Shown: piece after piece, positions 320 to 17,475 of the stretch
Layout: every line of letters starts with the position of its first letter
How positions within the stretch are numbered: the stretch's first letter is position 1
Virus record (IMG/VR): IMGVR_UViG_2645727555_000005
Span: 1 to 19,035 of that record
Origin: a virus
Lineage: Duplodnaviria; Heunggongvirae; Uroviricota; Caudoviricetes
DNA length: 19,035 bases
Strand: one strand, 5' to 3'
The notes under the pieces: generated by a model
The model's input: the letters and a program-made list of their open reading frames with translations, nothing else
Database searches by the model: none
What the model was told of the DNA's origin: nothing
Position numbers and translations under genes: made by a program

Positions 320-604
320 ATGCCAACGAAAGCTGAGTTACAGGCGCGCATAGAGATTCTTGAAAAAGAGAATGCGAGTCTAAAAGGAATGCTGGCGCGG
401 GCGGAAAGGGAATTATCAGGCAAATTATTGCCAGAAGAGCTGCCACCAGCAGATATACCTGATCGAGTGTCCTGGTGGATGAAGTATTTCCGTGCACCGT
501 GGGAGGCGTTTTGGTGCTACGACCATCGCAGATGGTGTGATGAGCTTGATAGCAGTTTCCCCTATTTTGCGGAAGGGAACTCTTGCCCTGAATGTAGGAG
601 TTAA
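320..604 (+). CDS. hypothetical protein, coiled-coil N-terminus with C-terminal Cys/His cluster
   Basis: Same frame as track ORF 239..604. GAGG 6 nt upstream of ATG at 320; ATG at 308 is an alternative start. Heptad-like N-terminus (ELQARIEILEKENASLKGMLARAERE) and C-terminal CYDHRRWC...CPEC cluster. Function not recognised. Confidence 0.4.
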   Translation: MPTKAELQARIEILEKENASLKGMLARAERELSGKLLPEELPPADIPDRVSWWMKYFRAPWEAFWCYDHRRWCDELDSSFPYFAEGNSCPECRS

Positions 605-834
605 TGATGACCGGCGAGCTTTATTTTAAAATGTTTCTCGTTAGGAGTGCAGTCAAAATTTTTGGGCAATACAGGATCGAGAGGAATGCGATTAGGCATA
701 GCTAATTCCTTATTAACTGATTGGCAACGAGGTTACGCTGATCCGTTGGTGATGAATAGTAGCAAAGCGCACAAAATCATCTGCGGTGGTTGATGTACAT
801 AACGCGTTTGCACCAAAGGTGTCTCTTTAATGTA

Positions 835-854
835 TACTGTATAAATGAACAGTA
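835..854 (+). promoter_or_regulatory. LexA (SOS) box upstream of humD
   Basis: TACTGTATAAATGAACAGTA fits CTGT-N8-ACAG exactly; ends 20 bp upstream of the humD ATG and overlaps a TATACT -10-like hexamer. Confidence 0.6.
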
Positions 855-873
855 TTGTTGAGGTTAAAACGCT

Positions 874-1263
874 ATGGGCTTCCCTTCTCCTGCGGCGGAT
901 TATGTTGAAAGCAGAATTTCTCTTGATCAGCAACTAATCAGGCATCCATCAGCGACATACTTCATGCGGGCGGCAGACAGCCATCACCGTGAAGGAATAT
1001 TGCAGGGTGCTTTGCTGGTGGTCGATTCCTCACTTACTCCGGTTGATGGTTCGCTACTTGTCTGCGCTATGGAGGGTGAATATCGCATAAAGAGATACAG
1101 GAAGTATCCGCGCCAGCACCTGGAGGATTTAAGCACCGGGAAGAAAGAGGCGTTACCAGTAGATGACGATGGATGCACGGGCAGTAATGCTGTTTTTGGT
1201 GTGATCACTCATGTCATCAATGATGCCCGAAGTGGGGAGTTTGATGATTGTCCGGTTATTTAA
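874..1263 (+). CDS. humD: UmuD'-like translesion-synthesis accessory protein (HumD-like)
   Basis: 129 aa. Begins GFPSPAADYVE, the position of the processed UmuD' N-terminus, and continues with the S24-peptidase-fold core (SATYF...LLVVD...FGVITHV). P1 HumD has the same pre-truncated architecture (from memory). Confidence 0.85.
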   Translation: MGFPSPAADYVESRISLDQQLIRHPSATYFMRAADSHHREGILQGALLVVDSSLTPVDGSLLVCAMEGEYRIKRYRKYPRQHLEDLSTGKKEALPVDDDGCTGSNAVFGVITHVINDARSGEFDDCPVI

Positions 1264-1298
1264 GCTGCAAAGAGCTGGTGCTTTATGCCTGTGAAGTT

Positions 1299-1330
1299 TA
1301 TAATTGTGTACACATAACGAGTACACGAGG
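1299..1330 (+). promoter_or_regulatory. phd-doc promoter/operator
   Basis: TATAAT at 1299-1304, then palindrome GTGTACAC (1306-1313) and half-palindrome GAGTACAC (1319-1326), then GAGG RBS (1327-1330). Matches the autoregulated Phd operator arrangement. Confidence 0.6.
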
Positions 1331-1335
1331 TGTTT

Positions 1336-1557
1336 ATGCGATCCATTAACTTCCGTACCGCGCGCGGCAACCTTTCTGAAGTGCTCAACAATGTTGAAGC
1401 CGGGGAAGAGGTTGAAATCACCCGCAGAGGCCGTGAGCCAGCAGTAATTGTCAGTAAGGCTACTTTCGAAGCCTACAAAAAAGCGGCGCTGGATGCTGAA
1501 TTTGCATCCCTGTTTGACACCCTGGACTCCACCAACAAGGAACTGGTTAACCGATAA
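1336..1557 (+). CDS. phd: Phd antitoxin (prevent-host-death)
   Basis: 73 aa, [39 protein letters not shown]..., essentially the P1 Phd sequence as recalled. ATG at 1336 preferred over the track GTG at 1330 because of RBS spacing. Stop overlaps doc start (TAATG). Confidence 0.9.
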
Positions 1558-1937
1558 TGAGGCATATATCACCGGAAGAACTTATTGCGCTTCATGATGC
1601 GAATATAAACCGCTACGGCGGCCTGCCGGGAATGTCAGATCCGGGTAGGGCAGAGGCCATTATCGGGAGAGTTCAGGCCAGAGTTGCCTACGAAGAGATC
1701 ACCGACCTTTTCGAAGTCTCCGCCACCTACCTGGTGGCTACAGCGAGAGGGCATATATTCAATGATGCCAATAAGCGTACCGCGCTAAACAGTGCGCTGT
1801 TATTTCTACGCCGTAACGGGGTGCAGGTATTTGATTCACCTGAACTGGCAGACCTTACTGTAGGCGCTGCGACTGGCGAGATATCTGTATCTTCTGTCGC
1901 CGACACGTTACGTAGATTGTATGGTTCTGCGGAGTAG
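1557..1937 (+). CDS. doc: Doc toxin (Fic-fold kinase, death-on-curing)
   Basis: 126 aa with Fic-type motif HIFNDANKR; near-identical to P1 Doc as recalled; translationally coupled to phd. Confidence 0.9.
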
Positions 1938-1941
1938 ATTA

Positions 1942-2139
1942 ATGGCACGTAAATACAACAAGTTGTCCCGTGAAGCGTTAAAGATGCTTCTTGATGGCGT
2001 GAGTCGCCGCGAGGTAAAGCAATACCTGGTTGGTAAGCAAATTGGTGCCAGGACCGCTATTGCTGTGTTATGCCGTCAGGAAATGGTTGTGCTTAAACAG
2101 AGAATGCTTGGTAGCAGACAAAGTGCTTCCAGTATTTGA
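1942..2139 (+). CDS. hypothetical small basic protein (65 aa), possible DNA-binding
   Basis: ATG at 1942 with GGAG 7 nt upstream, directly after the doc stop. Basic, helix-rich sequence (LSREALKMLLDGVSRREV...). Followed by terminator hairpin. Confidence 0.45.
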   Translation: MARKYNKLSREALKMLLDGVSRREVKQYLVGKQIGARTAIAVLCRQEMVVLKQRMLGSRQSASSI

Positions 2140-2142
2140 AAA

Positions 2143-2171
2143 GAAGCCCGCCATACCAAGCGGGCTTTTTG
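2143..2171. terminator. bidirectional intrinsic terminator between convergent operons
   Basis: AGCCCGC (2145-2151) / GCGGGCT (2160-2166) stem, 8-nt loop, T5 run on the plus strand and A/T-rich run on the other. Lies between the stop at 2139 (plus) and the stop at 2172 (minus). Confidence 0.6.
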
Positions 2172-2948
2172 TTATTTCACCTCTTCTGCCGCTGTATCAT
2201 TGGACTGTTCTTCTTTGGCCCGTTCTGCAATCGCCGCACGGCATTTCGCCCTGGCTATAGCGATTGCTTCAGCTCGCACATCGTCTGGAATCGTTGACGT
2301 GATATACATATCCAGTTCTTCGGCACGGAATACTGTTTGGTCCAGATATTCGCGTAGCATCCAGGTAAATTCGAAATCACACGCGATAATCTCTGCGCTA
2401 CCTTCTGCACCATTTGGGAAATGAATAAATGCCTGTTTAGCCAAACCGATAACACGACATGCGGTTGCCAAAACAGCGACAACCAGGTTTACATTTTCAC
2501 ACGCTACGGGCTGATTAACGCCGGAGATTACTCCATTTAACTGTCGGTTATATGGAAGGTAGTTTGAGATGCGTTCTACGCGCCATGTGCCAGTCAGGCT
2601 GCCATTTTTAAAGATAATTGGTGTAACGGATAGCCCAAGCTCGCGTATAAGTCGTTGCGCTATAGCAGGATCATTAAACAGGTCTAATGCTACACATTCG
2701 AAAGACTGCGCAAGGGCAAACAGTTCTTCCAGAGAGTAGTCTTTGCCCCTGGCGGTGATGTAACGACGAACGCCGCTGTCTGCATCACTCCATATAGCTA
2801 CGCCATGCTCTTCATTCAGCTCTTCATTAAAGCCGAGATACGTCATGATAGTGCGTTCAATCGTGTCAAACGGCAGTGACATGTCGGCGTTAACAGCCAC
2901 CAGCAGGCCATTACGCAAGCGGTATTGAATTGTTTTGGTGCTTTCCAT
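2172..2948 (-). CDS. hypothetical protein (258 aa), last gene of the dre-downstream operon
   Basis: Long ORF with GAGTGA RBS-like sequence 6 nt upstream; 6-nt gap from the preceding gene; acidic Ala/Glu-rich C-terminal tail. No motif recognised. Confidence 0.7.
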   Translation of the reverse strand: MESTKTIQYRLRNGLLVAVNADMSLPFDTIERTIMTYLGFNEELNEEHGVAIWSDADSGVRRYITARGKDYSLEELFALAQSFECVALDLFNDPAIAQRLIRELGLSVTPIIFKNGSLTGTWRVERISNYLPYNRQLNGVISGVNQPVACENVNLVVAVLATACRVIGLAKQAFIHFPNGAEGSAEIIACDFEFTWMLREYLDQTVFRAEELDMYITSTIPDDVRAEAIAIARAKCRAAIAERAKEEQSNDTAAEEVK

Positions 2949-2954: not shown

Positions 2955-3605
2955 TCACTCCACTACAAACCAGTCACAAGCCAGTAAATCATCAACAGAC
3001 GGCAACCAAACGCTGTCCATATTTTGTGCATCTTTCAATACGAAATGGTCACCATAAGGAACCTGAATGTCGTGTAAATTGACGCTCCCAGCGAGAACTA
3101 ACCAGCAGAATTGCTTTTCGCCTTTCCACTCGCGTCGAGCTACATTTTTTCCTTCTTTCAGCCACATTAGCGCATCAGAAAAGTCGGCTGCTTCAAGGTC
3201 GATTTCCTCTTGCTGGGTAGTGGTACCACCAGCAGAAATAGTTACGCTCCCGGTAATATTAATCATCACGCCGTTGTCATCCGTAATGATGACCGTGGTT
3301 CCATTTTCGGAGGCGTCGTTAACCAGGCCATAGCATTCCTCAAATGGTTTCTCCGGGGCATAGAACAGATAACCGTTTTCATAAACGATCAGATACCCGC
3401 CAGTTTTTGGTCGGTGTTTTTGTAAAAACATTGCGTCAACACAAACTGTTGCCCCTTTTGGTTCAACGAGTTCAATGCAGCCCCAAAGTGGGGCATCAGT
3501 TACTCCGAAAATAACAACATTTTTGATTTTCGATGCACTAACGTTTTTGTGAGCTTTGTATTTGGGAAGGAACTTAAAAAGCTCTTTCGTTGCCATGTAA
3601 TTCAT
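2955..3605 (-). CDS. hypothetical protein with C-terminal DUF2829-like domain
   Basis: 216 aa. C-terminal ~75 aa (FSDALMWLKEGKNVARREW...LLACDWFVVE) matches the DUF2829 pattern (A..W.K.GK.V.R..W ... DW.hhE). AGGAAAGG RBS directly upstream. Confidence 0.7.
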   Translation of the reverse strand: MNYMATKELFKFLPKYKAHKNVSASKIKNVVIFGVTDAPLWGCIELVEPKGATVCVDAMFLQKHRPKTGGYLIVYENGYLFYAPEKPFEECYGLVNDASENGTTVIITDDNGVMINITGSVTISAGGTTTQQEEIDLEAADFSDALMWLKEGKNVARREWKGEKQFCWLVLAGSVNLHDIQVPYGDHFVLKDAQNMDSVWLPSVDDLLACDWFVVE

Positions 3606-3619
3606 AGCCTTTCCTCTGC

Positions 3620-4114
3620 TTAAAACTTTGCGTACTGAAGCGGTGTGCGCTTGATTTCAAAGTGGTCTTCCGATGTGCTACCAAAGCCACCAGTACCACG
3701 TTCCGTTTCGTTGAGTTCCTCAACCTCGACTAGTGAGACTTGTTCAACACGCTCAAAAATGCCTTGCATGACAGCCATTCCAGGCTTGAGACGAACGACT
3801 TCCCCGCCTGGATCAGTAATCAGTTTTGCCATGATTTCACCGCGATAATCAGAGTCGATAATTCCTACGCAGTTAGCCAGGCGAGTATGTTTTTTGCAGC
3901 CCAATCCGGAGCGCGGATAGAGTTTCAGACACCAGCCGGGCGGGATCTCCATAGCCAGTCCGGTGTACACCCACCAGCTTGAGGAAATTGCACCATTGCT
4001 ATCGACGCATGGTTTTATTTCAACAGCCTCAAAATCCATCGCCGCCGATCCGGAGGTGGCATAAGCTGGAAGTTTTGCTGCCGGATGTAGGCGTTTCACT
4101 TTTACGTAAATCAT
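3620..4114 (-). CDS. dut: dUTP diphosphatase (trimeric dUTPase family)
   Basis: 164 aa with all dUTPase motifs in order: YATSGSAAMD, PRSGLG, GIIDSDYRGEI, MQGIF, RGTGGFGSTS. Start overlaps upstream stop (ATGA). About 15-aa C-terminal extension beyond motif V. Confidence 0.85.
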   Translation of the reverse strand: MIYVKVKRLHPAAKLPAYATSGSAAMDFEAVEIKPCVDSNGAISSSWWVYTGLAMEIPPGWCLKLYPRSGLGCKKHTRLANCVGIIDSDYRGEIMAKLITDPGGEVVRLKPGMAVMQGIFERVEQVSLVEVEELNETERGTGGFGSTSEDHFEIKRTPLQYAKF

Positions 4115-4587
4115 TGTTTTTTAGCTCTCTGCGTGAAGGTGTAAACCCGACGTTTGATATGTGGAACGGTGGGAACAGGAAGACAGGAACTTTCAATAAC
4201 TCCTTGCTCCTCCAGCGATCGCACCGCCCGCAAGAACTGCGACGTGTCGCCGCCAAACTGGCGGGCATAGGTGCTGCCGTTATGAAGTATTTGAGCTATT
4301 ACCCGAGCTTTTGTCTGGCTGTCACGATATGCGAATAGCCGCACGGCCTCTTCTGGCGCAATCGCTAACTGATAGCCTTTCCCGGCACGGTGTCGAATGA
4401 ATCCATGCGCCAGTAGGTTTTTGAGTTCGTTACGAGTGCGAACAGTTCCGTAATCCAGGAAGTGTGGATTGATAACGACTGGCTTAAACCATTCCGTAGG
4501 TGCTTTAGCTAATAGAGTTAACAGATTCCCGGATAATTCTGGATAGGAAGATGGGTAACAATTCAGAGATGGGTAATAAGTTTTCAC
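4111..4587 (-). CDS. hypothetical protein with winged-helix-like segments (possible transcription regulator)
   Basis: 158 aa. C-terminal FLRAVRSLEEQGVIES...KRRVYTFT resembles a MarR/PadR-type recognition helix plus wing; a second similar segment (LKNLLAHGFIRHRAGKGYQL) lies upstream. ATGA overlap with both neighbours. Confidence 0.6.
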   Translation of the reverse strand: MKTYYPSLNCYPSSYPELSGNLLTLLAKAPTEWFKPVVINPHFLDYGTVRTRNELKNLLAHGFIRHRAGKGYQLAIAPEEAVRLFAYRDSQTKARVIAQILHNGSTYARQFGGDTSQFLRAVRSLEEQGVIESSCLPVPTVPHIKRRVYTFTQRAKKQ

Positions 4588-4928
4588 CGACGCCCCCTTG
4601 CAGGATATCGACCTGCATTAGTATCCGGTGCAATAAAGCCGGTAGTGGGGCGAGTGAAAGCAAGATTAATCTTCTCGACCATAGTGCGATAATTTTCCTG
4701 ATAGTGGGCCAGGAGTTTTTCGGCGGCAATGATGGTTACTTTCCGGACGTAGCTTTCTGCTTCCGCCAGATTTCGCCAGTTTTTTTCGAGGGTAAACACA
4801 GGGACGGCCTCAAGCCCGGTCATGATGCCGAACACAACGACAGCATGACTGTTCTTAACACCAGCGGCGAAGGTTACGGTGTAACCATCCACCTTGAAGC
4901 GTCTTGATTCCGTGATTTGACTCTGCAA
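4584..4928 (-). CDS. hypothetical protein (114 aa), first gene of the dre-downstream operon
   Basis: TTG start at 4928 preceded by a strong AGGAGG 5 nt upstream; ATGA overlap with the next gene. Confidence 0.55.
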   Translation of the reverse strand: MQSQITESRRFKVDGYTVTFAAGVKNSHAVVVFGIMTGLEAVPVFTLEKNWRNLAEAESYVRKVTIIAAEKLLAHYQENYRTMVEKINLAFTRPTTGFIAPDTNAGRYPARGRR

Positions 4929-5001
4929 AGCACCCTCCTAAATAGGCGAGGGTACTTTACAGCAAAGGCGTTAATCTAAAAAGATGTGTTAGAAATTTAA
5001 T

Positions 5002-6030
5002 TTAAGAATCCATCAGGCGGCTATTAGCCCCCACAGACACGCCGCCACGGCGAAGATACCGCATAAGTGTTTCCGGTTTCTTCCAGGTTCCTTCCTGCAT
5101 GATCTCCACCATAGACACCTGCTTTTCAGCCATATCAATAGCGGCCCCGACGCGTGCACTATGCCCGGTCCACGTCCGGTATCTTCCTTTGTTTGGCGTA
5201 GCATCTCTTTTATTCAGCAACACCCAGGCGTCGCTGAATATTTTCTCCATTGCAGGTGCAGTAAGGGGCGTTGTCGTGAGCCTGGCCTTATTGCTACGGT
5301 GTATCGGCGGGAACAGCACTGCGTCAGGATGTTCGCGAAGCCCGGAAACATCCAGCCAGTCATTCAGCACAGCGGTAGTGCGACGGGAAAGCACCTTATC
5401 AAGCCCGGCGGCGGTCGTTATTGTCTTCGTGTGTGAAATATGTAGCGTGACAGTGTCACCTGTTTGGTCCAGATCTCCTACACGAATACGCGATATTTCC
5501 GACATACGCATCAGCGTATTGTATGCAACAAAGAGAAAAGCCCGGTTGCGCAGGTCCACCAGCCGTTCTGACCTGGACAGCAGGACGTCGAGCAGTTTCA
5601 GATCGTCCCACCGCAGCGGTATAGCCTGGCCTGTTCGTTCGCCTTTTTCAGTTGCCGCTTCGCGCCGGATGCGCCGCATAGCCAGAGAAACACTTTTATC
5701 ATCCGAAAGTGGTGGAAGGCCACAATGCGAAAGCAGCATGTTCAGCATGGCGTAGTGCTTATCAATGGTGGTCGAAGCCAGATCGGCATCATGCAGCTGA
5801 AGAAAATACTCGCGGGCCATTTCTGGTGAGATCGGAAACCAGGCAAGCTGGCGAGCGTGACACCAGCGCGCCCAGGAATGAAACACCAACCGGAGGTCGC
5901 GCAGAGTATTCGGCGCATAAGCCCCCTGGTCATTCATGAACCGCATAAAGTTTTCTGCGGCTTCCTGGTACTCTTTGCCAATGTTGCGCAGAAAACCACC
6001 GGAACTGCCAGAGATAATTAATTCACTCAT
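5002..6030 (-). CDS. dre: Cre-family tyrosine site-specific recombinase (Dre-like)
   Basis: 342 aa, collinear with P1 Cre. Catalytic positions conserved: Arg in AYNTLMRMSEISRIRVGD (Cre R173 region), H-x-x-R (GHSARVGAA), Trp (EGTW), Tyr nucleophile (MRYLRRG). Arm-binding regions diverge from Cre, consistent with altered site specificity. Confidence 0.92.
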   Translation of the reverse strand: MSELIISGSSGGFLRNIGKEYQEAAENFMRFMNDQGAYAPNTLRDLRLVFHSWARWCHARQLAWFPISPEMAREYFLQLHDADLASTTIDKHYAMLNMLLSHCGLPPLSDDKSVSLAMRRIRREAATEKGERTGQAIPLRWDDLKLLDVLLSRSERLVDLRNRAFLFVAYNTLMRMSEISRIRVGDLDQTGDTVTLHISHTKTITTAAGLDKVLSRRTTAVLNDWLDVSGLREHPDAVLFPPIHRSNKARLTTTPLTAPAMEKIFSDAWVLLNKRDATPNKGRYRTWTGHSARVGAAIDMAEKQVSMVEIMQEGTWKKPETLMRYLRRGGVSVGANSRLMDS

Positions 6031-6182
6031 GAAACTATTTCACCTCTATATACAGATGACGCTACGCGAAAAATATAAAAATGACAGGGTAGCTATAAGT
6101 TAATTTTCAAAATACAAGCCTTTGATTCGAGGCACGTATTTTCAGTGATGTCAACACTGTTCATCTACACATGATTATAGCC

Positions 6183-6214
6183 TAACTTTAAATAATGCCA
6201 ATTATTTAAAGTTA
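6183..6214. other. rox: rox-type recombination target site
   Basis: TAACTTTAAATAAT-GCCA-ATTATTTAAAGTTA: two perfect 14-bp inverted arms around an asymmetric 4-bp spacer. Outer arm bases resemble loxP (ATAACTT...AAGTTAT). Lies 152 bp upstream of the recombinase start. Matches the 32-bp rox site of Dre as I recall it. Confidence 0.85.
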
Positions 6215-6370
6215 TAAAATGGCGATTTTTTTTAATCCATCACAGATTGATTCTGACCAGTAACACGTTGCCTTCATGGTCTTTAATTTGCGAAGTGTGG
6301 TTTATACAGTTGGTTTTCTAAAATTGATGACAAAAAATCACAGTTCGATCCTTTACTCACTCTGTTATTC

Positions 6371-6384
6371 GACATAAATTTGTC
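6371..6384. promoter_or_regulatory. dyad element GACA-N6-TGTC in promoter region of the 345-aa gene
   Basis: GACATAAATTTGTC with AAATTT core, 40 bp upstream of the ATG at 6425 and overlapping a TTGTCA -35-like hexamer. Operator candidate only. Confidence 0.3.
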
Positions 6385-6424
6385 ATAGTAATTTTATGTT
6401 AGAAAACTAAATCGAGTAGGAATA

Positions 6425-7462
6425 ATGAGTAAGAAGTCGATCGAGAAAGAGTACAAACGGTTCCTGCAAACCGCTGAACGGTGGAAAGAGCTGGTGGTCG
6501 CAAACTCTGTTTTCCATGATACCAGTTATGCTGGCGAGGAATTCCGCCATGTTGCATTAACGCATGACCAAAACATATTAGAAGAAGCTGAAAAATGTCT
6601 TGCTGAATGGAAAGCCTTCGTTGACATGTGTCGCGATGCCGACGGCAAAGCGTCGAACATTGTTGAGTCTGTATATTCTCCGATCCCATTCATCATTGAG
6701 GACACCAATCAAAGCACGCATGTTGTTGTGCAAAGCGCTACAACAACACGTACATTTACACGTGAACAATTGCTCAAAAAATACGACAAAATCATAAAGA
6801 AAAGCCTGAAAAATAGGGTTTTTTCTCAAATCGTAGGTGCTCTTGAAGAAGAACAGCGCTTCTTTGAAGCTGAGCCTGAAGGCGAGATCTACCGGGCGCG
6901 TAAAGAGGCATATACAGATGTTGTGCTGACAACAAACATCGAAGGCAGCAATGCCCTTTCTCGCTTTAGAGTTGGCGCACATGGCGCATTGGTTTTCGCA
7001 AGACTACCGAAGACAACGATCCCCGTTGTCAATAATGTTGGTGAACGCCGGAGCATTACAATTTATTCTGGCGTCGAATCGGTACCTTGCAGCCTTCTCG
7101 GCGATTTTAACTTATATCGTGTTCGTGACCTGGAAAAACACCAGCCAAGCTACGTTGCGAAGTCGTACATCTTAAGGAACATCGATATTCGCAATGAAAG
7201 CCTTAAGCAGAAATCCGCTAAGATGCTGGAGGATGCCGATCCGGCTATTCGCCATATCATTGAGCGTAAGATACGTACATCACGTGAAGCAATGGCAAGG
7301 CTGGATAAAATGGATCTGGAATTGTTAGACGTAATGATGGCCTCTGGAGACGACCTGACCGGCATTAAACTAAATGAAGCTCGTAAAAAATACGGCAAAG
7401 CAATCGAAGAACGTTACGGATACACATTCCCCCAAACGCAGTACGCCGCGAAGCTCTGGTAA
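6425..7462 (+). CDS. hypothetical protein (345 aa) in the immunity-region slot
   Basis: ATG with AGGA RBS 6 nt upstream; own promoter region and own terminator. Lys/Asn/Ile-rich, lower GC than neighbours. No HTH or catalytic motif recognised. Convergent with pacB, divergent from dre across rox, which is the P1 c1 position by synteny. Confidence 0.8.
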   Translation: MSKKSIEKEYKRFLQTAERWKELVVANSVFHDTSYAGEEFRHVALTHDQNILEEAEKCLAEWKAFVDMCRDADGKASNIVESVYSPIPFIIEDTNQSTHVVVQSATTTRTFTREQLLKKYDKIIKKSLKNRVFSQIVGALEEEQRFFEAEPEGEIYRARKEAYTDVVLTTNIEGSNALSRFRVGAHGALVFARLPKTTIPVVNNVGERRSITIYSGVESVPCSLLGDFNLYRVRDLEKHQPSYVAKSYILRNIDIRNESLKQKSAKMLEDADPAIRHIIERKIRTSREAMARLDKMDLELLDVMMASGDDLTGIKLNEARKKYGKAIEERYGYTFPQTQYAAKLW

Positions 7463-7471
7463 TCACAACTG

Positions 7472-7497
7472 GCCCCGCATCGCGGGGCTTTATATAT
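7472..7497 (+). terminator. intrinsic terminator after the 345-aa gene
   Basis: GCCCCGC (7472-7478) / GCGGGGC (7482-7488) stem with 3-nt loop, followed by TTTATATAT. Overlaps the pacB stop codon on the opposite strand. Confidence 0.6.
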
Positions 7498-8998
7498 CCA
7501 GATCTGGCATTTCGATATCCGCCAGAACCTGATCTCGGAAAGTTGCCATTTCGGCACCAATATCTTCATTAGCAGGCACATAGTCCACCAGCATAGTGAA
7601 GCAGTAGGTATCCCATCGGTCAGGCGATTTGATGTTTAGCTTTTGCCGCATGTGCTCTTTGCGCATCATCGCCATTTTCCCTTCCTCATTCAGTAAAAAG
7701 GGGATTTTTGACGCTTGCTCTGCCGTTTTAGGGTCACTGTCTATCCGCATACGCCCTGACTTTATGGCATCACGCGCCATAATATTTGCGTAGGCACGCT
7801 GATTAACAAATCGCTCCCTGTCTTTGTTCGCAAACATGGGTTTTCCCCACCGAATACGTACCGGGTTCGCACCACGACGCACCAACTGCGCACACGCATC
7901 AGAACCAAAACCATCGGCATCAACCGCGATTGTTATATTCGGGTATTTTTCCGGCGTACATTCGTTATATATGAAGTCAGCAAAGGCCAATGGGTCCATA
8001 GTGCCAGGCATCTCCATTACCTTAAAGTTAACAACGCGCCGCTTATCCCTGTGACCAGATACCTTGCAGATGTTGAGGACCGACTTATCTCGCCCATTAC
8101 CAACGTCAGCCGTTGCCACCCATCCCCAGTTTTTCTCCAACAACACCTTGCGGCGAGCTGCGCGATCGCATTCATCACGACCAAGCAAATAGCCGTTAAT
8201 TTCTCGTGGGAACTGACCAAGCACCTTGACCATGTACTCAATAGAATCGCGCCCGCCATATTCCAGAAGCTTCTGCTTGATGAATTGTGGTGTGACGAAC
8301 GGTGATTCTTCCGAGTTAAGAACAATTGCTGTCCAGATCCCTTTCGGGTTGTCTGGGGTTTTTGCTTGAGAATGGTGCGAATCGTAGAAATAACCACTTG
8401 GCCTTGTTGGCTGGGATAGCATCAACATCCGGTTATCTTCTTCAGTAAGAGCACCGGTCATTACGCCGATCGCCTTATCAGATATACCAGATGCTTCATC
8501 CAGAATTAGAAGCAAATGTGCCGCATGTTCCCCCGCCAGCGCTTCTTCGTTGCCGAGTCGATAACCTTTGCAGAGAACTTCCCAAATCCCCTTACGGGAG
8601 CGCTCATAAAACATGGTGTCAGAGAGGACAAAATAGGTCTGCAACCACCCATGACGCTTAACTGCATTCGCCCAATACTGTTTAACGTATTTGAATACGC
8701 CTGTTTTTACCTGGCCTATCTTGTTAGCAACAATGATGACACGGGCATCGGGGAACAGGATCATAAAAATCAACAGCAACATCGCGGTAAGGGACGACTT
8801 CCCCGTTCCGTGTCCGGACGTGACGGTCGTCCTACTCCCCGTTTCCTGCACTGACTGAATGATCTGCTGCTGCTGGTGGGAGGGGAACATCCCAAAAATA
8901 TCGACAACAGCCTGGGTAAAGTTGTAGCGGTATTTGATTACCATATCGCGCCAGCGTGGATCGCTGGTGACGCATTTAATCTTGCGCCCGCCAGCCAT
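7490..8998 (-). CDS. pacB: terminase large subunit (PacB-like)
   Basis: 502 aa with Walker A GHGTGKS near the N-terminus and an acidic nuclease-type C-terminal half. Start overlaps pacA stop by 1 nt. P1-type order lpa-pacA-pacB. Confidence 0.9.
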   Translation of the reverse strand: MAGGRKIKCVTSDPRWRDMVIKYRYNFTQAVVDIFGMFPSHQQQQIIQSVQETGSRTTVTSGHGTGKSSLTAMLLLIFMILFPDARVIIVANKIGQVKTGVFKYVKQYWANAVKRHGWLQTYFVLSDTMFYERSRKGIWEVLCKGYRLGNEEALAGEHAAHLLLILDEASGISDKAIGVMTGALTEEDNRMLMLSQPTRPSGYFYDSHHSQAKTPDNPKGIWTAIVLNSEESPFVTPQFIKQKLLEYGGRDSIEYMVKVLGQFPREINGYLLGRDECDRAARRKVLLEKNWGWVATADVGNGRDKSVLNICKVSGHRDKRRVVNFKVMEMPGTMDPLAFADFIYNECTPEKYPNITIAVDADGFGSDACAQLVRRGANPVRIRWGKPMFANKDRERFVNQRAYANIMARDAIKSGRMRIDSDPKTAEQASKIPFLLNEEGKMAMMRKEHMRQKLNIKSPDRWDTYCFTMLVDYVPANEDIGAEMATFRDQVLADIEMPDLDI

Positions 8999-10362
8999 TA
9001 ATCATCCTCCGGCGGTTCTATCGCGATATCATCATCTCCGGCGTCATACCCTGCATCAGATGCATCATAATCACCGTAAATTTCAGCCGTTGCCGAAGGG
9101 TCAATATCCAGCTCTTCGTCGTTGGCCTCGAATTCTCCAGCTTTACGCTCGCCATTGCGGTCGTAATCTCCGCACCCCAATTCTTCAACAATGGTTGCCA
9201 CATCCGCCCGGCGCTCTGCCAGCCATTGCGGATGGTTAGCCTGAAGCGTTGCAAACTCCCTTGCCTCTTTGTCCAGCTGTTCATCATCAACATCATTGAC
9301 GTCAGAAACAGGTGGTTCGAGAAGAGTGATAGCTTTCGCCGCGCGCGCCGCGAGGATAGCCGGGACGCTGACCCCCTGGCGCTCGATGTATTCAGCAACA
9401 CCGATATCATCCAGTTCCTCGCGCTCACGCATACGTATAGCGGCGGCGATAACTCTGGCAGCGCGTGCGTCAGCGCCAATGCGATATTCAATCTCTTTGC
9501 CACGCTGTTCGGCCTGTAGGCGTGCTAATTCGAGTTTTTCTCTGGCCTCAGCCTCTTTGAATGCTTGCTGGCGAGCGCTCTGACGAAGCTTTTCATCCCC
9601 CTGTCGCAGCTTTTGTTCGGACTGATATATAGCTGCCAACCTACTGATAAAATCATTCATGTAGTAGGCCGCGTCACTGATTAGACCGAGAAGGCGCTGC
9701 CCAGGGTGCATTCCTTCTGGCTCTTTATCGCCCAAGGCGTCTATTTCCGCCTGTAGACGTTCGGCCTCCTGATCAACAATGCTTTGATACTGAAGTGCGC
9801 GCTCTTGCGCCATTTGAATTGCTAACCGCAGGTGTTCTTCTGCGCCGTTCTTCATCATATCGCGAGCCACATTCGTAGTGGGCAATGTGGCACGCTGCAC
9901 AGCACCGCCAGGGATCATTGCTGAAGATCCCTCAATTTTTGGGGCGCTTTTATCTTCTTCGGGGATCATTTTCGCCATTTTTTCGCGCAATGGTCTCCTG
10001 ACAGATTCTTTTATCTCATTGTTATTATTTGCATTATTTTCATGATCCGAAGTTTTCTTTCTCGGCATACTTCGGAAAGAACCTGCGCCCTGCGAATTGT
10101 CAATTTCTGTAAATTTTGTTTTTTCTGCACCCTCTTCCAGCTTTTTTGTTGCTCTTCCCGCCCGTTTTTTTTCAGGTGATTTGGTGCTTTTTTTTGTTGT
10201 CTTTACCTGCGACCGCACCTCATTTTTTTTCATATTGAGATGCTTTCTGGCTGTATTGAAGCTAAGGCCATGCTCCTCACAGTATTCCTTTACAGTGATC
10301 CCTTTTTCTTCACGCAACGCTATAAAGCGGGCGCGGTGCTCCTCCCAATTAACCAGACTCAT
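8998..10362 (-). CDS. pacA: terminase small / pac-recognition subunit (PacA-like)
   Basis: 454 aa. N-terminal HTH-like segment (WEEHRARFIALREEKGITVKEYCEEHGLSFNTARKHL) resembling the P1 PacA N-terminus; Lys-rich linker; central coiled coil; acidic C-terminus. ATGA overlap with lpa. Confidence 0.8.
   Translation of the reverse strand: MSLVNWEEHRARFIALREEKGITVKEYCEEHGLSFNTARKHLNMKKNEVRSQVKTTKKSTKSPEKKRAGRATKKLEEGAEKTKFTEIDNSQGAGSFRSMPRKKTSDHENNANNNNEIKESVRRPLREKMAKMIPEEDKSAPKIEGSSAMIPGGAVQRATLPTTNVARDMMKNGAEEHLRLAIQMAQERALQYQSIVDQEAERLQAEIDALGDKEPEGMHPGQRLLGLISDAAYYMNDFISRLAAIYQSEQKLRQGDEKLRQSARQQAFKEAEAREKLELARLQAEQRGKEIEYRIGADARAARVIAAAIRMREREELDDIGVAEYIERQGVSVPAILAARAAKAITLLEPPVSDVNDVDDEQLDKEAREFATLQANHPQWLAERRADVATIVEELGCGDYDRNGERKAGEFEANDEELDIDPSATAEIYGDYDASDAGYDAGDDDIAIEPPEDD
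9900..10050. other. candidate pac cleavage region (GATC hexamer cluster inside pacA)
   Basis: TGATCC-type hexamers on opposite strands at 9913-9916, 9964-9967 and 10044-10047, plus GATC at 9926, TGATCA at 9770 and TGATCC at 10297, flanking an A/T-rich core (10000-10040). P1 pac is a cluster of Dam-methylatable TGATCA/G hexamers inside pacA. Confidence 0.3.
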
Positions 10363-10751
10363 AAAGCAACACCACGCTTTTTAACGGCGGCATTCCACAG
10401 CTTATTCGCCATGTCCACCAGCTCTCGTTGCTCTTTTCGCGCCTGTTCGACTGATTTCCTGCTACAGTTTTTAACCAGTAAGCTACCGTATTCAGGCGTG
10501 CGCCCGCGCACCTTGAACTGATATCCGTTCAGACCATGTAGCCAGTATTTTCGTGGATACACACGATCATCCAGCTCACAGATTGCCCTGCTTGAACGAA
10601 CAAAATGACGAATGATGTTAGTTACACTTACTCGTGAAACATGGAGATGAGGGTATTTTTCTTTGGCGAGAGTGGTAATTTCAGTGACTGTCAGATAGCA
10701 GTCAGCCCTGATCATGATATCCGCAATTTCTGCGCTGCTGATTTGTTCCAT
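10359..10751 (-). CDS. lpa: late-promoter-activator-like protein (Lpa position)
   Basis: 130-aa ORF immediately upstream of and overlapping pacA, as lpa is in P1. TATAAT-containing promoter region upstream. Assignment is by synteny only. Confidence 0.5.
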   Translation of the reverse strand: MEQISSAEIADIMIRADCYLTVTEITTLAKEKYPHLHVSRVSVTNIIRHFVRSSRAICELDDRVYPRKYWLHGLNGYQFKVRGRTPEYGSLLVKNCSRKSVEQARKEQRELVDMANKLWNAAVKKRGVAL

Positions 10752-10859
10752 TAATCCCCCGGGCAGGAAATGACCGAGGGGATGATAATGAGAATGTTAA
10801 AACTGTATAGACTGGTAAAAAGATGATTATATTAGAAAATTAATATTAAATACCTAACA

Positions 10860-11252
10860 CTACCAGCGAGACAAACGAACAACATGTTTCACTTTTGCGA
10901 TCCACTTTCCGCGATAACTATTGATTACGGCCTGTGCCAGCTTCAAATTGGCTTCAAAATCAGCCTTACTACCATCAGACTCCACCAGCATTCCTCCATC
11001 TATTTCTGGTAAACATAGATAATCCTGCTCAACCTGCAGCGGCATTGATGGCTCTCTGAATGGCGTTACTTGCTCTGCTTTCCAGCGAAATCTAACCCTC
11101 ATCCCCCTGGTGGTCATTACTAGATAGCCTGTTATAGTGCTTTTATGGCCCACATCAGTACGCGTGGCATTGCATGACACGATCTTACAGTTAGCGATAG
11201 ACCACTCCATATTGGTGGCCTGTTGAGTGCTTAATTTGGTAGTCCCGTACAT
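10860..11252 (-). CDS. hypothetical protein (130 aa)
   Basis: ORF whose start overlaps the stop of the upstream DUF2829-like gene by 1 nt; no motif recognised. Confidence 0.55.
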   Translation of the reverse strand: MYGTTKLSTQQATNMEWSIANCKIVSCNATRTDVGHKSTITGYLVMTTRGMRVRFRWKAEQVTPFREPSMPLQVEQDYLCLPEIDGGMLVESDGSKADFEANLKLAQAVINSYRGKWIAKVKHVVRLSRW

Positions 11253-11827
11253 CAGAAAGCCTCCCAGTCAGTCGCGATAATATCCACACCAGTTGCAAAC
11301 CAGTCTGTCTGCGCCTGTAAATCCCCATTCATCATTACCAAGCGAGGCATCACCATCACATCGCACCCTTCCACAATATCGAATGCCTCTTCCGGTAAGA
11401 ATTCGAAGAGCTTTTCTTTGCTGCCAATGCTGCCACGGAACATCGATATATAGCTCCCTTTAGGCCATGATGTCCGCCGGGCATCAAGCCCTTTCATCAT
11501 CCAGTAAAAAGCCGAGGAAAAAGGGATATTCTTTTTGCCAATGATTACATTATTCGCTTCTGTGTACTTCAGGAACTTAACTAACCTTACCATTGACTCG
11601 GATAACGCAACGTATGGCTCATGATTGATTGCTGACACGCTTACACCGTGCAATCCAACGCTTACCACTGTCATATCGCCGCTCTGTGCGGTTTCGATAT
11701 TGACGCCTTTGCGAACTAATGAGGCGTAAAGTTCCTCTCGCTTTTGGGTCCAGCGTTCCCGCTTCCCTATGAAGTCACTCAAAATGAGATCTTCTTCTGC
11801 ATGTGCGTTATCGTTCGCCATTAACAT
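11252..11827 (-). CDS. hypothetical protein with C-terminal DUF2829-like domain
   Basis: 191 aa. C-terminal FSSAFYWMMKGLDARRTSWPKGSYI...DIIATDWEAF fits the same DUF2829 pattern as the 216-aa protein at 2955-3605. Near-palindrome CATCTCTCGG...CCGATAGAGATG at 11861-11890 just upstream. Confidence 0.65.
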   Translation of the reverse strand: MLMANDNAHAEEDLILSDFIGKRERWTQKREELYASLVRKGVNIETAQSGDMTVVSVGLHGVSVSAINHEPYVALSESMVRLVKFLKYTEANNVIIGKKNIPFSSAFYWMMKGLDARRTSWPKGSYISMFRGSIGSKEKLFEFLPEEAFDIVEGCDVMVMPRLVMMNGDLQAQTDWFATGVDIIATDWEAF

Positions 11828-12282
11828 AACGTCTCCTTTTTACACGCGCGACCATCTCTCGGTTAAACCGATAGAGATGTCGAAACTTCGTATTAATTAA
11901 GGGTTACAGCCTGAGCGGCTATATGATGAATTGAAAGGAGTTGTGGCGGTGGTGCCTCCACCTGCCAGGTCAGCCACGCCCGGCGACGACACTTATCAGA
12001 ACCTCAATGAATGAAAATGGCTTCGTCACGAGCGCATAGCCGCAATTACCACAACGGAAACGGCGCTCGCGTTAATTAAACGCCTTTTCCTGTTGTGCGC
12101 CGTACTCTTCCGGCTGTCACACCGAATCGCCAGGATGGTGAGTCCTCGGTCCGACGATATGAACGGGGCTTGCACATTCCGGCTACCTGGTTTGTTGCCT
12201 GAGCTAGGGGCAAGGTTCCCCCCTTTTAACGTCACCAGACCGCTAACGACGCATGTGCCAGACGCCGTGTTACAACCAAATG

Positions 12283-12358
12283 TGGTGGCCCCTACCGGAC
12301 TTGAACCGGTGACCGTGCGATTATGAGTCGCCAGCTCTAACCACTGAGCTAAAGGGCC
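12283..12358 (-). tRNA. tRNA with CAT anticodon, most like tRNA-Ile2 (lysidine, AUA decoder); elongator Met not excluded
   Basis: 76 nt incl. encoded CCA: GGCCCTT TA GCTC AGTGGTTA GAGC T GGCGA CTCATAA TCGCA CGGTC ACCGG TTCAAGT CCGGT AGGGGCC A CCA. G1-C72 pair, so not initiator. Closely resembles E. coli ileX as recalled. Confidence 0.85.
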
Positions 12359-12495
12359 AGATTACTGTTAATTCCGCTTACGCTTTTTGCCAGAACCGCG
12401 TAAGGCTTTTGCCGCTTGCTCGACCCCATATGCAACCACCAGCAAAAATAAAAATGTCCAACCAGGGTTCTTATCGGCAAACGCCCAAAAATTCA

Positions 12496-12819
12496 TCACT
12501 TACAGCCACCTTGCATTTCCTTGGATAATTCATTGATTTTAGTGCTCAATAAGTAATCAAAATAAAGATAAAACACAAAAGTAACGATAGTGCTTAAAGT
12601 GTCTGAAATTGCGTATTTCAGCTCAGGAAGCATGACAAAGCAGACAAATAGCGGAAGAAATAACTGCACTATGCACAGGCTCTTCTTCCACAACCATCTA
12701 TATCTGAAGTCTGACAACAAAAACTCCATTGCTTGAAACTTTATTAGATTGCGGTGCCTGGTGCCTCCAGGTGACGTTAACCAGTTAACAATTAACGTCG
12801 GGATGTTTGACTTAACCAC
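12496..12819 (-). CDS. possible small hydrophobic membrane protein (start uncertain, GTG 12819 or ATG 12729)
   Basis: Track ORF; the portion from the internal Met (MEFLLSDF...) is strongly hydrophobic. No convincing RBS. Located between tRNA genes. Confidence 0.3.
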   Translation of the reverse strand: MVKSNIPTLIVNWLTSPGGTRHRNLIKFQAMEFLLSDFRYRWLWKKSLCIVQLFLPLFVCFVMLPELKYAISDTLSTIVTFVFYLYFDYLLSTKINELSKEMQGGCK

Positions 12820-12979
12820 TAAGGAGGATTGTTTTAACTGTTCCGCGTGCGCTTAGCCGCATTCACCGCAATGGTAAGAGCACTTGGCTGGCTGGGCGGC
12901 GATGACGCCTGTACGCATTTGGTGATCCGGTTCTGCTTCCGGCATTCGCTTAATTAGCCAAATACTCTTAACGTTGCGA

Positions 12980-13066
12980 TGGCGGAGAGTAATGGAATCG
13001 AACCATCATCGCTTGCGCAATGGGACGGTTTTCAAGACCGCTTGAGCACCATGCTCCCTACTCTCC
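12980..13066 (-). tRNA. type-II (long variable arm) tRNA-like gene, anticodon TGA (Ser)
   Basis: 87 nt incl. CCA. 7-bp acceptor GGAGAGT/ACTCTCC, anticodon arm GCGGT CTTGAAA ACCGT, T-arm GATGG TTCGATT CCATT, discriminator G. D-arm is atypical (GAGC/GCTC stem, 5-nt loop, 3-nt linker), so needs a tRNA scan. Confidence 0.55.
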
Positions 13067-13261
13067 AGTGATTGTGGTGGTCGGTGCTGATCTCCGACAC
13101 AGGGTTGTAGCAAGCCCCGCAAAGCGCGCACTACTGTAGTTGCGGCACATCAGCCTGTGCATTCACCACAATGTTGAGAACACTGGTTGTCACGCGGCAA
13201 CGCAACATTTATTCATAGATTGGGATATGACCCCGTTACGCCAATGTTCTCAATATTATGT

Positions 13262-13337
13262 TGGTGCCGGTTAACGGACTTGAACCGCTGGCCATTCGCT
13301 TACAAAGCGACTGCTCTACCAACTGAGCTAAACCGGC
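13262..13337 (-). tRNA. tRNA-Thr (anticodon TGT)
   Basis: 76 nt incl. CCA: GCCGGTT TA GCTC AGTTGGTA GAGC A GTCGC TTTGTAA GCGAA TGGCC AGCGG TTCAAGT CCGTT AACCGGC A CCA. Canonical cloverleaf. Confidence 0.9.
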
Positions 13338-13341
13338 AATT

Positions 13342-13428
13342 TGGTGGGGAGTGATGGAGTCGAACCACCCGAGTCGCAATGACAGTAGATTTACAGTCTA
13401 CCCCGCTACCCCTACGGACTAACTCCCC
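13342..13428 (-). tRNA. type-II tRNA-Tyr (anticodon GTA)
   Basis: 87 nt incl. CCA. Acceptor GGGGAGT/ACTCCCC, anticodon arm GTAGA CTGTAAA TCTAC (same loop as E. coli tRNA-Tyr), long variable arm, T-arm GGTGG TTCGACT CCATC. D-arm spacing off by 1 nt from canonical. Confidence 0.75.
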
Positions 13429-13433
13429 TAAAT

Positions 13434-13510
13434 TGGCGATGGTGGGCGGATTCGAACCACCGACCGACAGCTTAGAAGGCTGCTGCTCTATCCTACTGAG
13501 CTACACCATC
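13434..13510 (-). tRNA. tRNA-Arg (anticodon TCT, AGA decoder)
   Basis: 77 nt incl. CCA: GATGGTG TA GCTC AGTAGGATA GAGC A GCAGC CTTCTAA GCTGT CGGTC GGTGG TTCGAAT CCGCC CACCATC G CCA. Canonical cloverleaf. Confidence 0.85.
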
Positions 13511-13964
13511 ACTTGCCGGGTACGTCTCCGGCGAGGGCTTCCACCTCCGTATGCTTTTCGGCGCACCGCGCCCTGGCTGCAATTCGGTAACAGGGGATGC
13601 ACAACCCTGGCTTCCAGCGTGATTAGCGCCTTCAGCATGACGGGATATACCCGTTACAAGACATTATCCCAGAAAGCCATTAACCAATGGCTGTTACGCG
13701 GGAGGGACGTAACAGGTAAGGGCGCTGACCAGAAAGACCTGACCCTTCTCATTCATCTGGTTAATCACACCAGCGCCCTTGCCTGTTATGCCTCCCCGTT
13801 CCCTAATACACAGACGGGGACACTCTGCGGTCGATTTTTTGACGGGGGACGACTCATACCCCGTGGCGTCTGGCTTCTTAGGCCGCTACCATCATCAGAT
13901 CATCGTTTGCATTTACTTTAATGGTCGGTTTCTAAACCGCCGCAAAGTCGCTAACCATGACGAA

Positions 13965-13994
13965 AACCCTAAAAAAGCCCACCCGAAGATGGGC
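13965..13994 (-). terminator. candidate intrinsic terminator inside the ORF-free segment (minus-strand sense)
   Basis: On the minus strand, hairpin GCCCA-TCTTCGGG-TGGGC followed by TTTTTTAGGGTTTTCG. Short 5-bp stem, so moderate confidence. Confidence 0.4.
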
Positions 13995-14013
13995 AAATAC
14001 GCTACATCTCACA

Positions 14014-14092
14014 CAAGAAAGAAGCCGACTGCCTGAGCTGGATTCACTTTCAAATGCCCGCTGAAAGGGATCACAAGTCGGCTTCTTTCTTG
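14014..14092. repeat. 17-bp perfect inverted repeat flanking a 45-bp spacer
   Basis: CAAGAAAGAAGCCGACT (14014-14030) and its exact reverse complement AGTCGGCTTCTTTCTTG (14076-14092). Confidence 0.85.
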
Positions 14093-15953: not shown

Positions 15954-16032
15954 TGCTGTTCCCGTCACTTTGTTAAATTAGTTTTCTAATATATTTTATT
16001 AGTTTGATGACGGTATCGGAAGATGCAATAAA

Positions 16033-17473: not shown

Positions 17474-17475
17474 GG

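Follow-up and report, generated by a model that had tools for sequence, protein, structure and literature searches.

Positions 874 to 2171 of the viral record IMGVR_UViG_2645727555_000005 (the window, by which we mean the whole stretch of 19,035 nucleotides that was analysed) carry humD, the phd-doc pair and, directly behind doc, a small open reading frame followed by a terminator. The phd-doc pair belongs to the textbook examples of plasmid addiction, and the locus raises the question whether the small frame is a gene and whether it adds a further regulator to the pair, as had been proposed in a first-pass annotation. All features listed in that annotation were found in place when the sequence was checked (Table 1). 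Judged by its sequence, the segment is the already described humD/phd-doc/pdcA block of P1-family phage-plasmids and as such ordinary, and, taken in full, the window represents a phage-plasmid of the D6 type. We consider it very probable that the segment is a standard P1-family accessory block with four working parts, located on a D6-type element.

Relatives of the block in P1, D6 and IncF plasmids

Window positions 625 to 2123 are 97.07% identical to P1 at the DNA level. With 97% identity to a phage segment that has been studied in detail, the block has features far beyond what chance would produce. P1 has the same genes in the same order (P1_gp103 to gp106; NC_005856, 87584-88831), and shares the LexA box, the phd promoter with its operator and the TAATG overlap. 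The products differ from those of P1 by two residues in HumD (127 of 129 identical), one in Phd (72 of 73; Q2R), one in Doc (125 of 126; S18N) and two in the PdcA core (residues 1 to 59). However, P1 runs on into pdcB, lpa and pacAB, whereas the homology of the window to P1 stops at 2123, and P1 has no terminator after pdcA, while the window has one. In P1, pdcB is annotated as an HNH endonuclease and starts 27 nt after pdcA. On the upstream side, only the first 25 codons of the divergent P1 gene lxr are left here.

The same 65-aa PdcA and the same terminator hairpin sequence are found in D6 (orf108 to orf113; MF356679) and in the plasmid pVP441 (NZ_CP121358), the latter being 98.9% identical to window positions 700 to 2300. 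Both also have the convergent string of isaA-like, Tad2-like/DUF2829, dut and dre genes that is present here. In difference to the window, D6 carries an extra orf109 of 423 nt between humD and phd, has nothing in common with the window upstream of about position 826, and encodes an orf114 product of 146 aa, compared to 216 aa in the window.

A phd-doc island of IncF plasmids (e.g., NZ_OX637960 and NZ_LC520272) consists of Pphd, phd, doc and pdcA, is 97.8% identical to P1 and adjoins a type I restriction-modification locus. It has no humD, its pdcB breaks off after 278 nt, where IS5 follows, and the island lies on a conjugative plasmid backbone, unlike the phage-plasmid analysed here. The block is present in 1233 of 5426 complete E. 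coli genomes (about 23%), including IncF plasmids of clinical lineages. A search of Rfam gave no RNA family in 874-2171 and only tRNA genes elsewhere in the window.

Table 1. Features in and around the humD/phd-doc/pdcA block (positions refer to the window)
Feature	Position	Strand	Size	Remarks
LexA (SOS) box TACTGTATAAATGAACAGTA	835..854	.		20 nt 5' of the humD start
humD, UmuD'-like putative accessory subunit for SOS translesion synthesis	874..1263	+	129 aa	
phd promoter, -10 hexamer TATAAT	1299..1304	+		mapped from the P1 Pphd annotation
Two neighbouring Phd operator sites	1305..1326	.		repeat search; centres 13 bp apart
phd, antitoxin	1336..1557	+	73 aa	
doc, toxin, Fic-fold kinase	1557..1937	+	126 aa	
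Shine-Dalgarno GGAG for pdcA	1931..1934	+		7 nt 5' of the ATG, within the last doc codons
pdcA ("post-doc" gene A)	1942..2139	+	65 aa	P1 gp106, P7 fdc, D6 orf112
Two-way intrinsic terminator hairpin	2141..2170	.		terminator scan of both strands and folding
isaA-like gene, last of the convergent string	2172..2948	-	258 aa	phrog_2326; D6 orf113

Signals and products of humD, phd-doc and the shared terminator

HumD matches the NCBIfam equivalog NF051876 over all of its residues 1 to 129 (219.3 bits, cut-off 120) and also PF00717 (Peptidase_S24). The LexA box in front of the gene (CTG-N10-CAG) has the same sequence as the annotated LexA site of P1 (NC_005856). It is the sole match to the consensus in the window at up to three mismatches, and 0 of 200 shuffles contained a match. 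With this box ahead of it, humD would be expressed upon DNA damage, and HumD would then serve as the UmuD'-like partner in translesion synthesis. The earlier identification of humD as an intact gene with an SOS box is correct, and SOS control itself is likely.

The phd-doc pair has its own promoter, whose -10 hexamer is identical to the one annotated for P1 Pphd (3600-3605 of the P1 locus, at an offset of 2301) and abuts the two Phd operator sites. The first of these is a perfect 10-bp palindrome, TGTGTACACA, at 1305-1314, immediately 3' of TATAAT; the second is the GTAC-centred GAGTACAC at 1319-1326. Over 1264-1335 the window shows a single difference from P1, at position 1273, and 1274-1335 is identical; the Phd operator palindromes that had been recognised in the first pass are those of P1. 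The operator sequence is exact in 61 of 79 related loci and carries one or two base changes in 17. A dual-operator mode has been described for Phd-Doc of P1 (PMC13034048, PMC4803016), and the operon here would likewise be autoregulated by Phd, with Doc acting as co-repressor or derepressor depending on the ratio of the two (PMC4803016, PMC13034048).

Both proteins score above the curated cut-offs of their families: Phd with PF02604 (50.0 bits, cut-off 29.8) and TIGR01552 (48.1, cut-off 20.8), Doc with TIGR01550 DOC_P1 (133.1, cut-off 38.65) and PF02661 (38.6, cut-off 24). The Fic-type motif of Doc, HIFNDANKR, comprises residues 66 to 74 (1752-1778), fits the Doc-type motif HxFx(D/N)(A/G)NKR and is invariant in all 79 related loci. 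Base 1557 belongs to both the phd stop and the doc start (TAATG at 1555-1559, in the context cgaTAATGagg). When the exact sequences of phd and doc were checked for frameshifts and internal stops none were found, and the reading of an intact pair with Fic motif and phd/doc coupling holds. The pN/pS ratios, which were obtained from non-independent pairs of haplotypes that are closely related, are 0.058 for phd and 0.063 for doc.

The exchange Q2R in Phd was considered as a private, possibly damaging change, as it is absent from the 79 viral loci. This was rejected: the exact Phd sequence including Q2R occurs on at least 1000 public contigs, and Q2R is therefore a common allele. The same S18N form of Doc is found in 26 of the 79 related loci.

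In P1, Doc phosphorylates EF-Tu and arrests translation (PMC4803016). From its identity to P1 Phd we infer that Phd here both neutralises Doc and acts as repressor of the phd promoter (PMC4803016). Once the supply of labile Phd ceases, Doc would phosphorylate EF-Tu and translation would stop (PMC4803016, PMC13034048), with the expected outcome that cells losing the plasmid prophage are killed or arrested. For humD, phd and doc nothing new emerges from the window.

The hairpin behind pdcA occupies the 32 nt that separate the stop of pdcA (2137-2139) from the convergent stop of the isaA-like frame (2172-2174), the counterpart of which in D6, orf113, is annotated as similar to P1 isaA. On the plus strand it folds with -17.8 kcal/mol (z -4.9) into an 11-pair stem followed by UUUUUGUUAUUU, on the minus strand with -16.6 kcal/mol (z -4.5) into a 9-pair stem followed by UUCUUUUC. 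Both tails are U-rich, and none of 200 shuffles reached this stability on either strand. The convergent minus-strand string begins with dre (5002-6030), has no intergenic gap longer than 73 nt and is preceded by a promoter-like site that matches 11 of 12 positions (6201-6174). Folding of both strands thus bears out the bidirectional terminator shared with the convergent dre operon, and in D6-type genomes, which lack the pdcB of P1, the transcript would end at this two-way hairpin, which would also end the dre string.

pdcA is a gene under purifying selection

The frame behind doc had been described as a 65-aa basic ORF with a good ribosome binding site, and this was found to be correct. It starts with ATG 1942 only 4 nt after the doc stop, has its Shine-Dalgarno sequence inside doc and encodes a product with a pI of 11.0 (14 K+R versus 4 D+E). 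Comparison with the products of the pdcA/pdcB region of P1, which had been suggested as a check, identified it as PdcA of P1. The protein matches phrog_3345 with an E-value of 1.2e-42 over all profile positions (1-59/59), and 98 near-identical proteins were found, many of them named PdcA, with 92-98% identity to those so named. After the core of residues 1 to 59 follows the six-residue D6-type tail QSASSI.

For P1 an upstream start is annotated, which corresponds to ATG 1921 and would yield a 72-aa form. This start was rejected: no Shine-Dalgarno sequence precedes it, and the PHROG profile, the PGAP calls and the Yersinia homologues described below all begin at the position of ATG 1942.

A short frame of this kind might also be no gene but an open stretch within the 3' untranslated region of the doc mRNA. 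Besides its length, its family annotation is limited to a single PHROG of unknown function, pdcA was not testable in a CRISPRi screen, and in an RNA-seq table of P1vir lytic growth its signal is non-significant (log2FC 3.6-4.3, padj 0.27-0.50). However, pN/pS, calculated from pairs of closely related haplotypes that are not independent, is 0.16 in frame compared to 0.94 and 1.62 in the other two frames, and because of this ratio a spurious ORF was rejected. The polymorphic sites are distributed 7/5/14 over the three codon positions. The ATG is conserved in 79 of 79 loci and GGAG in 76 of 79; none of the 82 loci in the alignment has an indel in the shared core, and the 79 that extend across it are free of premature stops. 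A Yersinia homologue with 42% identity aligns over the full length, and AlphaFold gives a confident helical model. Together these observations make the reading as an accidental frame extremely unlikely. Conservation of the small ORF, on which the first-pass annotation had made its proposal depend, is thereby established, and pdcA is a real gene under purifying selection.

When 1.84 billion representatives were scanned exhaustively with HMMER, 15 matches to PdcA were returned. These were near-identical PdcA fragments, apart from one true distant homologue and two chance matches to repeat proteins, and searching again with the distant homologue added only one further protein. Neither of these two Yersinia-type homologues adjoins doc. 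That of Yersinia mollaretii stands alone, with an acetyltransferase gene on one side and umuDC on the other, and has its own upstream region; one distant homologue precedes a prlF-yhaV toxin-antitoxin pair at a distance of 99 nt. An operator-like palindrome 5' of the Yersinia homologue was discarded as a candidate, since its conservation did not extend to the second homologue.

Linkage of pdcA to doc and possible roles of its product

In the IMG/VR loci with enough flank, doc is located upstream of pdcA in every case. Among plasmid records, 1138 have pdcA and 1240 have phd-doc, and about 100 carry phd-doc without a match to pdcA; on conjugative plasmids the numbers are 294 and 310. A lineage of about 90% identity, found both on plasmids and in a tRNA-Phe island of the chromosome, has an intact phd-doc pair with pdcA reduced to 25-34 codons. 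The expectation for a three-component type II toxin-antitoxin system that the third gene is kept wherever the pair is kept therefore failed.

Co-transcription of pdcA with doc is plausible because of the 4-nt gap, the Shine-Dalgarno sequence inside doc, the conserved ATG and the lack of a convincing terminator at the doc-pdcA junction in the terminator scan. A simple promoter scan gave no sites in 600-2400; as it also missed the known phd promoter, it is silent on an internal pdcA promoter. Most likely pdcA is translated from the phd-doc mRNA, coupled to the doc stop.

PdcA has been named, yet it was never given a function and is uncharacterised. In the literature that mentions pdcA and pdcB both are termed unknown and non-essential. 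The single-sequence AlphaFold model (pLDDT 86) predicts helices at residues 2-17, 22-31 and 36-55, and PdcA would accordingly form a basic three-helix bundle. In Pfam, with E-values up to 10, the 65-aa form had no match and the 72-aa frame one chance-level hydrolase; NCBIfam gave just a match of 0.05 to a transposase N-terminal domain, and PADLOC no family. A sequence-profile search of the PDB yielded chance matches only, and a structure search found no significant neighbour among solved folds. There was also no significant match to helix-turn-helix families by sequence or fold, while nucleic-acid binding would be compatible with the protein. The proposal that the small ORF is a further regulator finds no support in these searches, and it is weakened by the lineage that keeps phd-doc with a truncated pdcA and by the position of the distant homologues away from doc.

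Small extra genes are known from three-gene toxin-antitoxin systems such as pasABC, paaR-paaA-parE and omega-epsilon-zeta, in some of which, e.g., pasC of pasABC, the third gene lies downstream. The likeness would lie in a small additional gene within the transcription unit of a type II toxin-antitoxin pair. To these systems pdcA shows no relationship in sequence or fold, and one phd-doc lineage persists without an intact pdcA. That the third gene here regulates or neutralises anything is unsupported.

PdcA could still be a third component of phd-doc, a small protein that binds DNA or another protein and modulates either the repression by Phd/Doc or the activity of Doc. The anatomy of translational coupling with doc points in this direction, as do the purifying selection on pdcA, the invariable position of doc upstream of it in viral contigs, the co-occurrence of about 92% with phd-doc on plasmids and the distant homologue beside prlF-yhaV. 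Moreover, two independent rearrangements spared pdcA, one with its junction 16 nt before the P1-type pdcA stop (D6) and one with its junction within pdcB (IncF). However, linkage over 200 bp of 97%-identical DNA may be hitch-hiking, the lineage with truncated pdcA retains an intact pair, the Y. mollaretii homologue stands alone, and PdcA resembles no known family of antitoxins, chaperones or regulators. In the classical addiction experiments phd and doc alone are reported to have sufficed. We therefore regard a role as third component as unlikely. It is equally doubtful that PdcA is made in step with Doc, binds the operator, the mRNA, Phd or Doc, and so tunes the release of Doc. If true, such a partnership would explain why pdcA stays with phd-doc whether the setting is P1-type, D6-type or IncF, and also why a homologue is found beside another toxin-antitoxin pair.

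Our best guess is that PdcA (59-65 aa, very basic, probably three-helix) binds nucleic acids as an accessory, non-essential protein, at a level that would follow the phd promoter. PdcA appears not to be required: P1 pdcA is listed as non-essential in a deletion survey, according to the part of PMC10695390 that cites it, and the lineage with truncated pdcA is consistent with this. It would then be dispensable for the addiction function itself. A demonstration that PdcA modulates Doc release or control of the phd promoter would extend a model system by one component, while a demonstration that it has no such role would close a small annotation gap; either outcome would be modest and of interest to specialists.

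Alternatively, PdcA and the product of P1 pdcB could form a two-gene unit, of which recombination left the D6-type pdcA as an orphan. In its favour are the 27 nt between the two genes in P1 and the full-length pdcB that follows pdcA in 70 of 79 related loci. Against it, D6-type elements (7 of the 79 viral loci, D6 and plasmids such as pVP441) keep an open and conserved pdcA without pdcB. We regard the two-gene unit as very unlikely. IncF plasmids likewise retain pdcA next to the shortened pdcB, and the exact 65-aa D6-type protein occurs on at least 1000 contigs.

An intact humD and phd-doc pair

The first-pass annotation had described an intact, SOS-controlled humD followed by an intact phd-doc pair, a basic 65-aa ORF and a terminator, and this observation was confirmed. 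HumD differs from P1 HumD at two residues, has no frameshift or internal stop and occurs as the exact sequence on at least 1000 public contigs. The LexA box is the same as the LexA site annotated in P1, which is consistent with SOS control of humD. In P1 the LexA-regulated gene lxr lies divergent from humD. The window, where P1 homology begins at 625, keeps only the first 25 codons of lxr, as a 32-aa ORF (601-699, minus strand), so that the shared LexA box would now serve humD alone.

Coordinates of the features of the block
Feature	Position	Strand	Evidence
LexA box	835-854		sole consensus match in the window; 0/200 shuffles yielded one
humD	874-1263	+	NF051876 HumD equivalog, 219 vs cut-off 120
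phd promoter, -10 TATAAT	1299-1304		directly before the operator sites
Phd operator, perfect palindrome TGTGTACACA	1305-1314		identical to P1
Phd operator, second site GAGTACAC	1319-1326		identical to P1
phd	1336-1557	+	PF02604, 50 vs cut-off 29.8; also TIGR01552
doc	1557-1937	+	TIGR01550, 133 vs cut-off 38.65; also PF02661
pdcA (small ORF)	1921/1942-2139	+	two candidate ATGs
Terminator hairpin	2141-2170	both	-17.8 kcal/mol (+), z -4.9; -16.6 kcal/mol (-), z -4.5

Phd and Doc each differ from the P1 proteins at one position (Q2R and S18N, respectively), and an exact sequence check for inactivation of the pair found no frameshift or internal stop in either. The Q2R allele occurs in none of 79 viral loci; the exact Phd protein is present on at least 1000 public contigs. 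The operator palindromes, Fic motif and stop-start overlap were all found in place: the motif HIFNDANKR is invariant in all 79 related loci, as is the TAATG overlap of phd stop and doc start. In P1, Phd-Doc binds a pair of neighbouring palindromes, co-repression depends on the Phd:Doc ratio, and Doc is an EF-Tu kinase (PMC4803016, PMC13034048).

Upstream of the block, a 94-aa ORF (320-604, plus strand) has a coiled-coil N-terminus and a Cys-rich C-terminus. Its copy on plasmid pVP441 is named "antitoxin PHD" in RefSeq, and the Pfam search gave no PhdYeFM match, only chance coiled-coil matches; the name was probably carried over during annotation.

Identity, ends and constraint of pdcA

Comparison with products of the P1 pdcA/pdcB region, as had been suggested, identified the small ORF as PdcA (P1 gp106). 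In the P1 record the gene directly follows doc and is listed as "unknown protein function"; it is called fdc in P7 and orf112, "similar to P1 gene pdcA", in D6. The protein encoded in the window covers the whole profile of phrog_3345 (unknown function; E 1e-42). It also matches 98 database proteins of Escherichia and Salmonella, all with at least 75% identity over the aligned part and many bearing the name PdcA; at least 1000 public contigs carry its exact sequence. In a 90%-identity protein collection the PdcA cluster has a 126-aa representative and also holds 126-aa Doc proteins, which looks like a clustering artefact.

The two ends of the gene vary between records. P1 homology ends at 2123, 16 nt before the window pdcA stop, so that, counted from the second ATG, the P1 form has 59 aa and ends in ...RMPGSR; the D6 form has 65 aa and ends in ...RMLGSRQSASSI. 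Of 79 viral loci, 72 have the 59-aa form, with its stop at the P1 position (71 ending in ...PGSR or ...SGSR, one in ...LGSR), and seven have the D6 form. In the P1 record pdcA begins at the first of the two ATGs, window 1921, and overlaps doc. ATG 1942 is favoured over it by the GGAG 7 nt upstream, the PHROG profile, PGAP-style 59-aa calls and the alignment with Yersinia homologues.

We aligned 80 IMG/VR loci with P1 and D6 and projected their phd-doc-pdcA core onto the window; 79 of these 82 span phd to the pdcA core. The shared core is free of indels in the 82 loci and of premature stops in the 79. Across the three codon positions, polymorphic sites number 7/2/27 in phd, 9/7/38 in doc and 7/5/14 in pdcA. 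Mean pairwise pN/pS, descriptive because the pairs are non-independent, is 0.058, 0.063 and 0.161, respectively; read in its two other frames, the pdcA stretch has values of 0.94 and 1.62. This clear frame contrast marks pdcA as coding and moderately constrained.

The block has been described before and is very common: 1233 of 5426 complete E. coli genomes have it, in most cases on a plasmid. In all viral loci with enough upstream flank doc precedes pdcA. PLSDB holds 1240 records with phd-doc and 1138 with pdcA, including 310 and 294 conjugative and 221 and 215 mobilizable plasmids. On the IncF plasmids NZ_OX637960 and NZ_LC520272 a P1-like segment (locus 4323-5489) begins with the phd promoter and stops 278 nt into pdcB, between a type I restriction-modification locus (hsdMSR) and IS5; carriers of this fragment include a plasmid from an ST131 isolate.

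Role of PdcA beside phd-doc

The small ORF had also been proposed as a further regulator co-transcribed with doc. The gene identities held and co-transcription is plausible; a regulatory role is unsupported. PdcA has no match in Pfam, NCBIfam, PADLOC or PDB sequences. It is basic (14 K+R vs 4 D+E, pI 11.0), and its single-sequence AlphaFold model (pLDDT 86) has helices at 2-17, 22-31 and 36-55 and a disordered tail that fits the variable C-terminus. Foldseek of the model against PDB and BFVD gave nothing at E below 0.25; the neighbours are mainly nucleic-acid-binding helical modules, which is not discriminating for a 55-residue three-helix bundle.

That PdcA is a true third component of the phd-doc system seems quite improbable. 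In a lineage of about 90% identity (154 records in the 90-95% band) phd and doc are intact and pdcA is a pseudogene of 25-34 codons, as seen in the two members inspected, a plasmid and a tRNA-Phe chromosomal island. Several database entries join an N-terminal piece of PdcA to unrelated sequence. P1 pdcA is listed as non-essential on the basis of a deletion survey and, having no PAM, was not targetable in the CRISPRi screen (PMC10695390).

An exhaustive HMMER scan yielded a single true distant homologue: P0100 from Yersinia mollaretii, of 61 aa and 42% identity. Searching with P0100 added its relative P0103; identities of the two are 36-42%. Conserved positions include L13, M15, L16, G19, R22, V25, K26, R37, A39 and the run LC-QEMV. 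P0100 (locus L003, 6001-6186) lies in prophage-associated cargo, flanked by an acetyltransferase gene and LexA-boxed umuDC, and has its own 150-nt upstream region; the nearby LexA box is that of the downstream umuD. P0103 (locus L007, 284-472) lies 99 nt upstream of prlF-yhaV. Members of the PdcA family thus also occur apart from doc. Of the three contexts, two adjoin a toxin-antitoxin pair and two are near a umuD-type gene, which with only three contexts is no more than an anecdote. An inverted repeat, TTATTGTCATCGACAATAA, lies upstream of the homologue in L003 and is not kept in L007.

Sequence type of the element and the convergent gene string

Searched by megablast against phage records, 700-2300 matched P1, P7, SJ46 and RCS47 with 97% identity over 700-2123 (query 1-1424) and D6 over 826-2300. 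Identity to P1 over 625-2123 is 97.07%, and the humD-to-pdcA block belongs to the P1 sequence type. Phage D6 is 98.4% identical over 6199-18942 in the whole-window comparison, and a D6 dre/c1/pac record 98.7% over 3806-11122. The closest plasmid, pVP441 (94 kb, non-mobilizable, from E. coli of pig faeces), shares the gene order of this region. These D6 matches and the shared gene order place the window among the P1-family phage-plasmids, as a D6-type element. Unlike the window and P1, D6 (MF356679) carries an additional 423-nt ORF, orf109 (3573-3995), between humD and phd.

The hairpin has U-rich tails on both strands and spans the entire gap between the convergent stops. Calling it shared with the convergent dre operon was fair, given the tight packing of the minus-strand genes from dre (5002-6030; PF00589) to 2172 and a promoter-like site. 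This strong sigma-70-like site, TTGGCA-16-TATAAT (6201-6174, minus strand, 11/12 positions), lies upstream of dre and is likely the promoter of the gene string ending at the shared terminator.

Within this string, a 216-aa protein (2955-3605, minus strand) carries at its C-terminus a domain like that of the Thoeris anti-defence protein Tad2 (PF11195, E 1.2e-17, residues 141-215) and is a candidate anti-defence gene product. Its pVP441 copy is a DUF2829 protein in RefSeq, whereas the D6 counterpart, orf114, has only 146 aa. Five tRNA genes lie at 12283-13510 on the minus strand (Met-CAT, Ser-TGA, Thr-TGT, Tyr-GTA and Arg-TCT), four of them confirmed by Rfam at gathering score.
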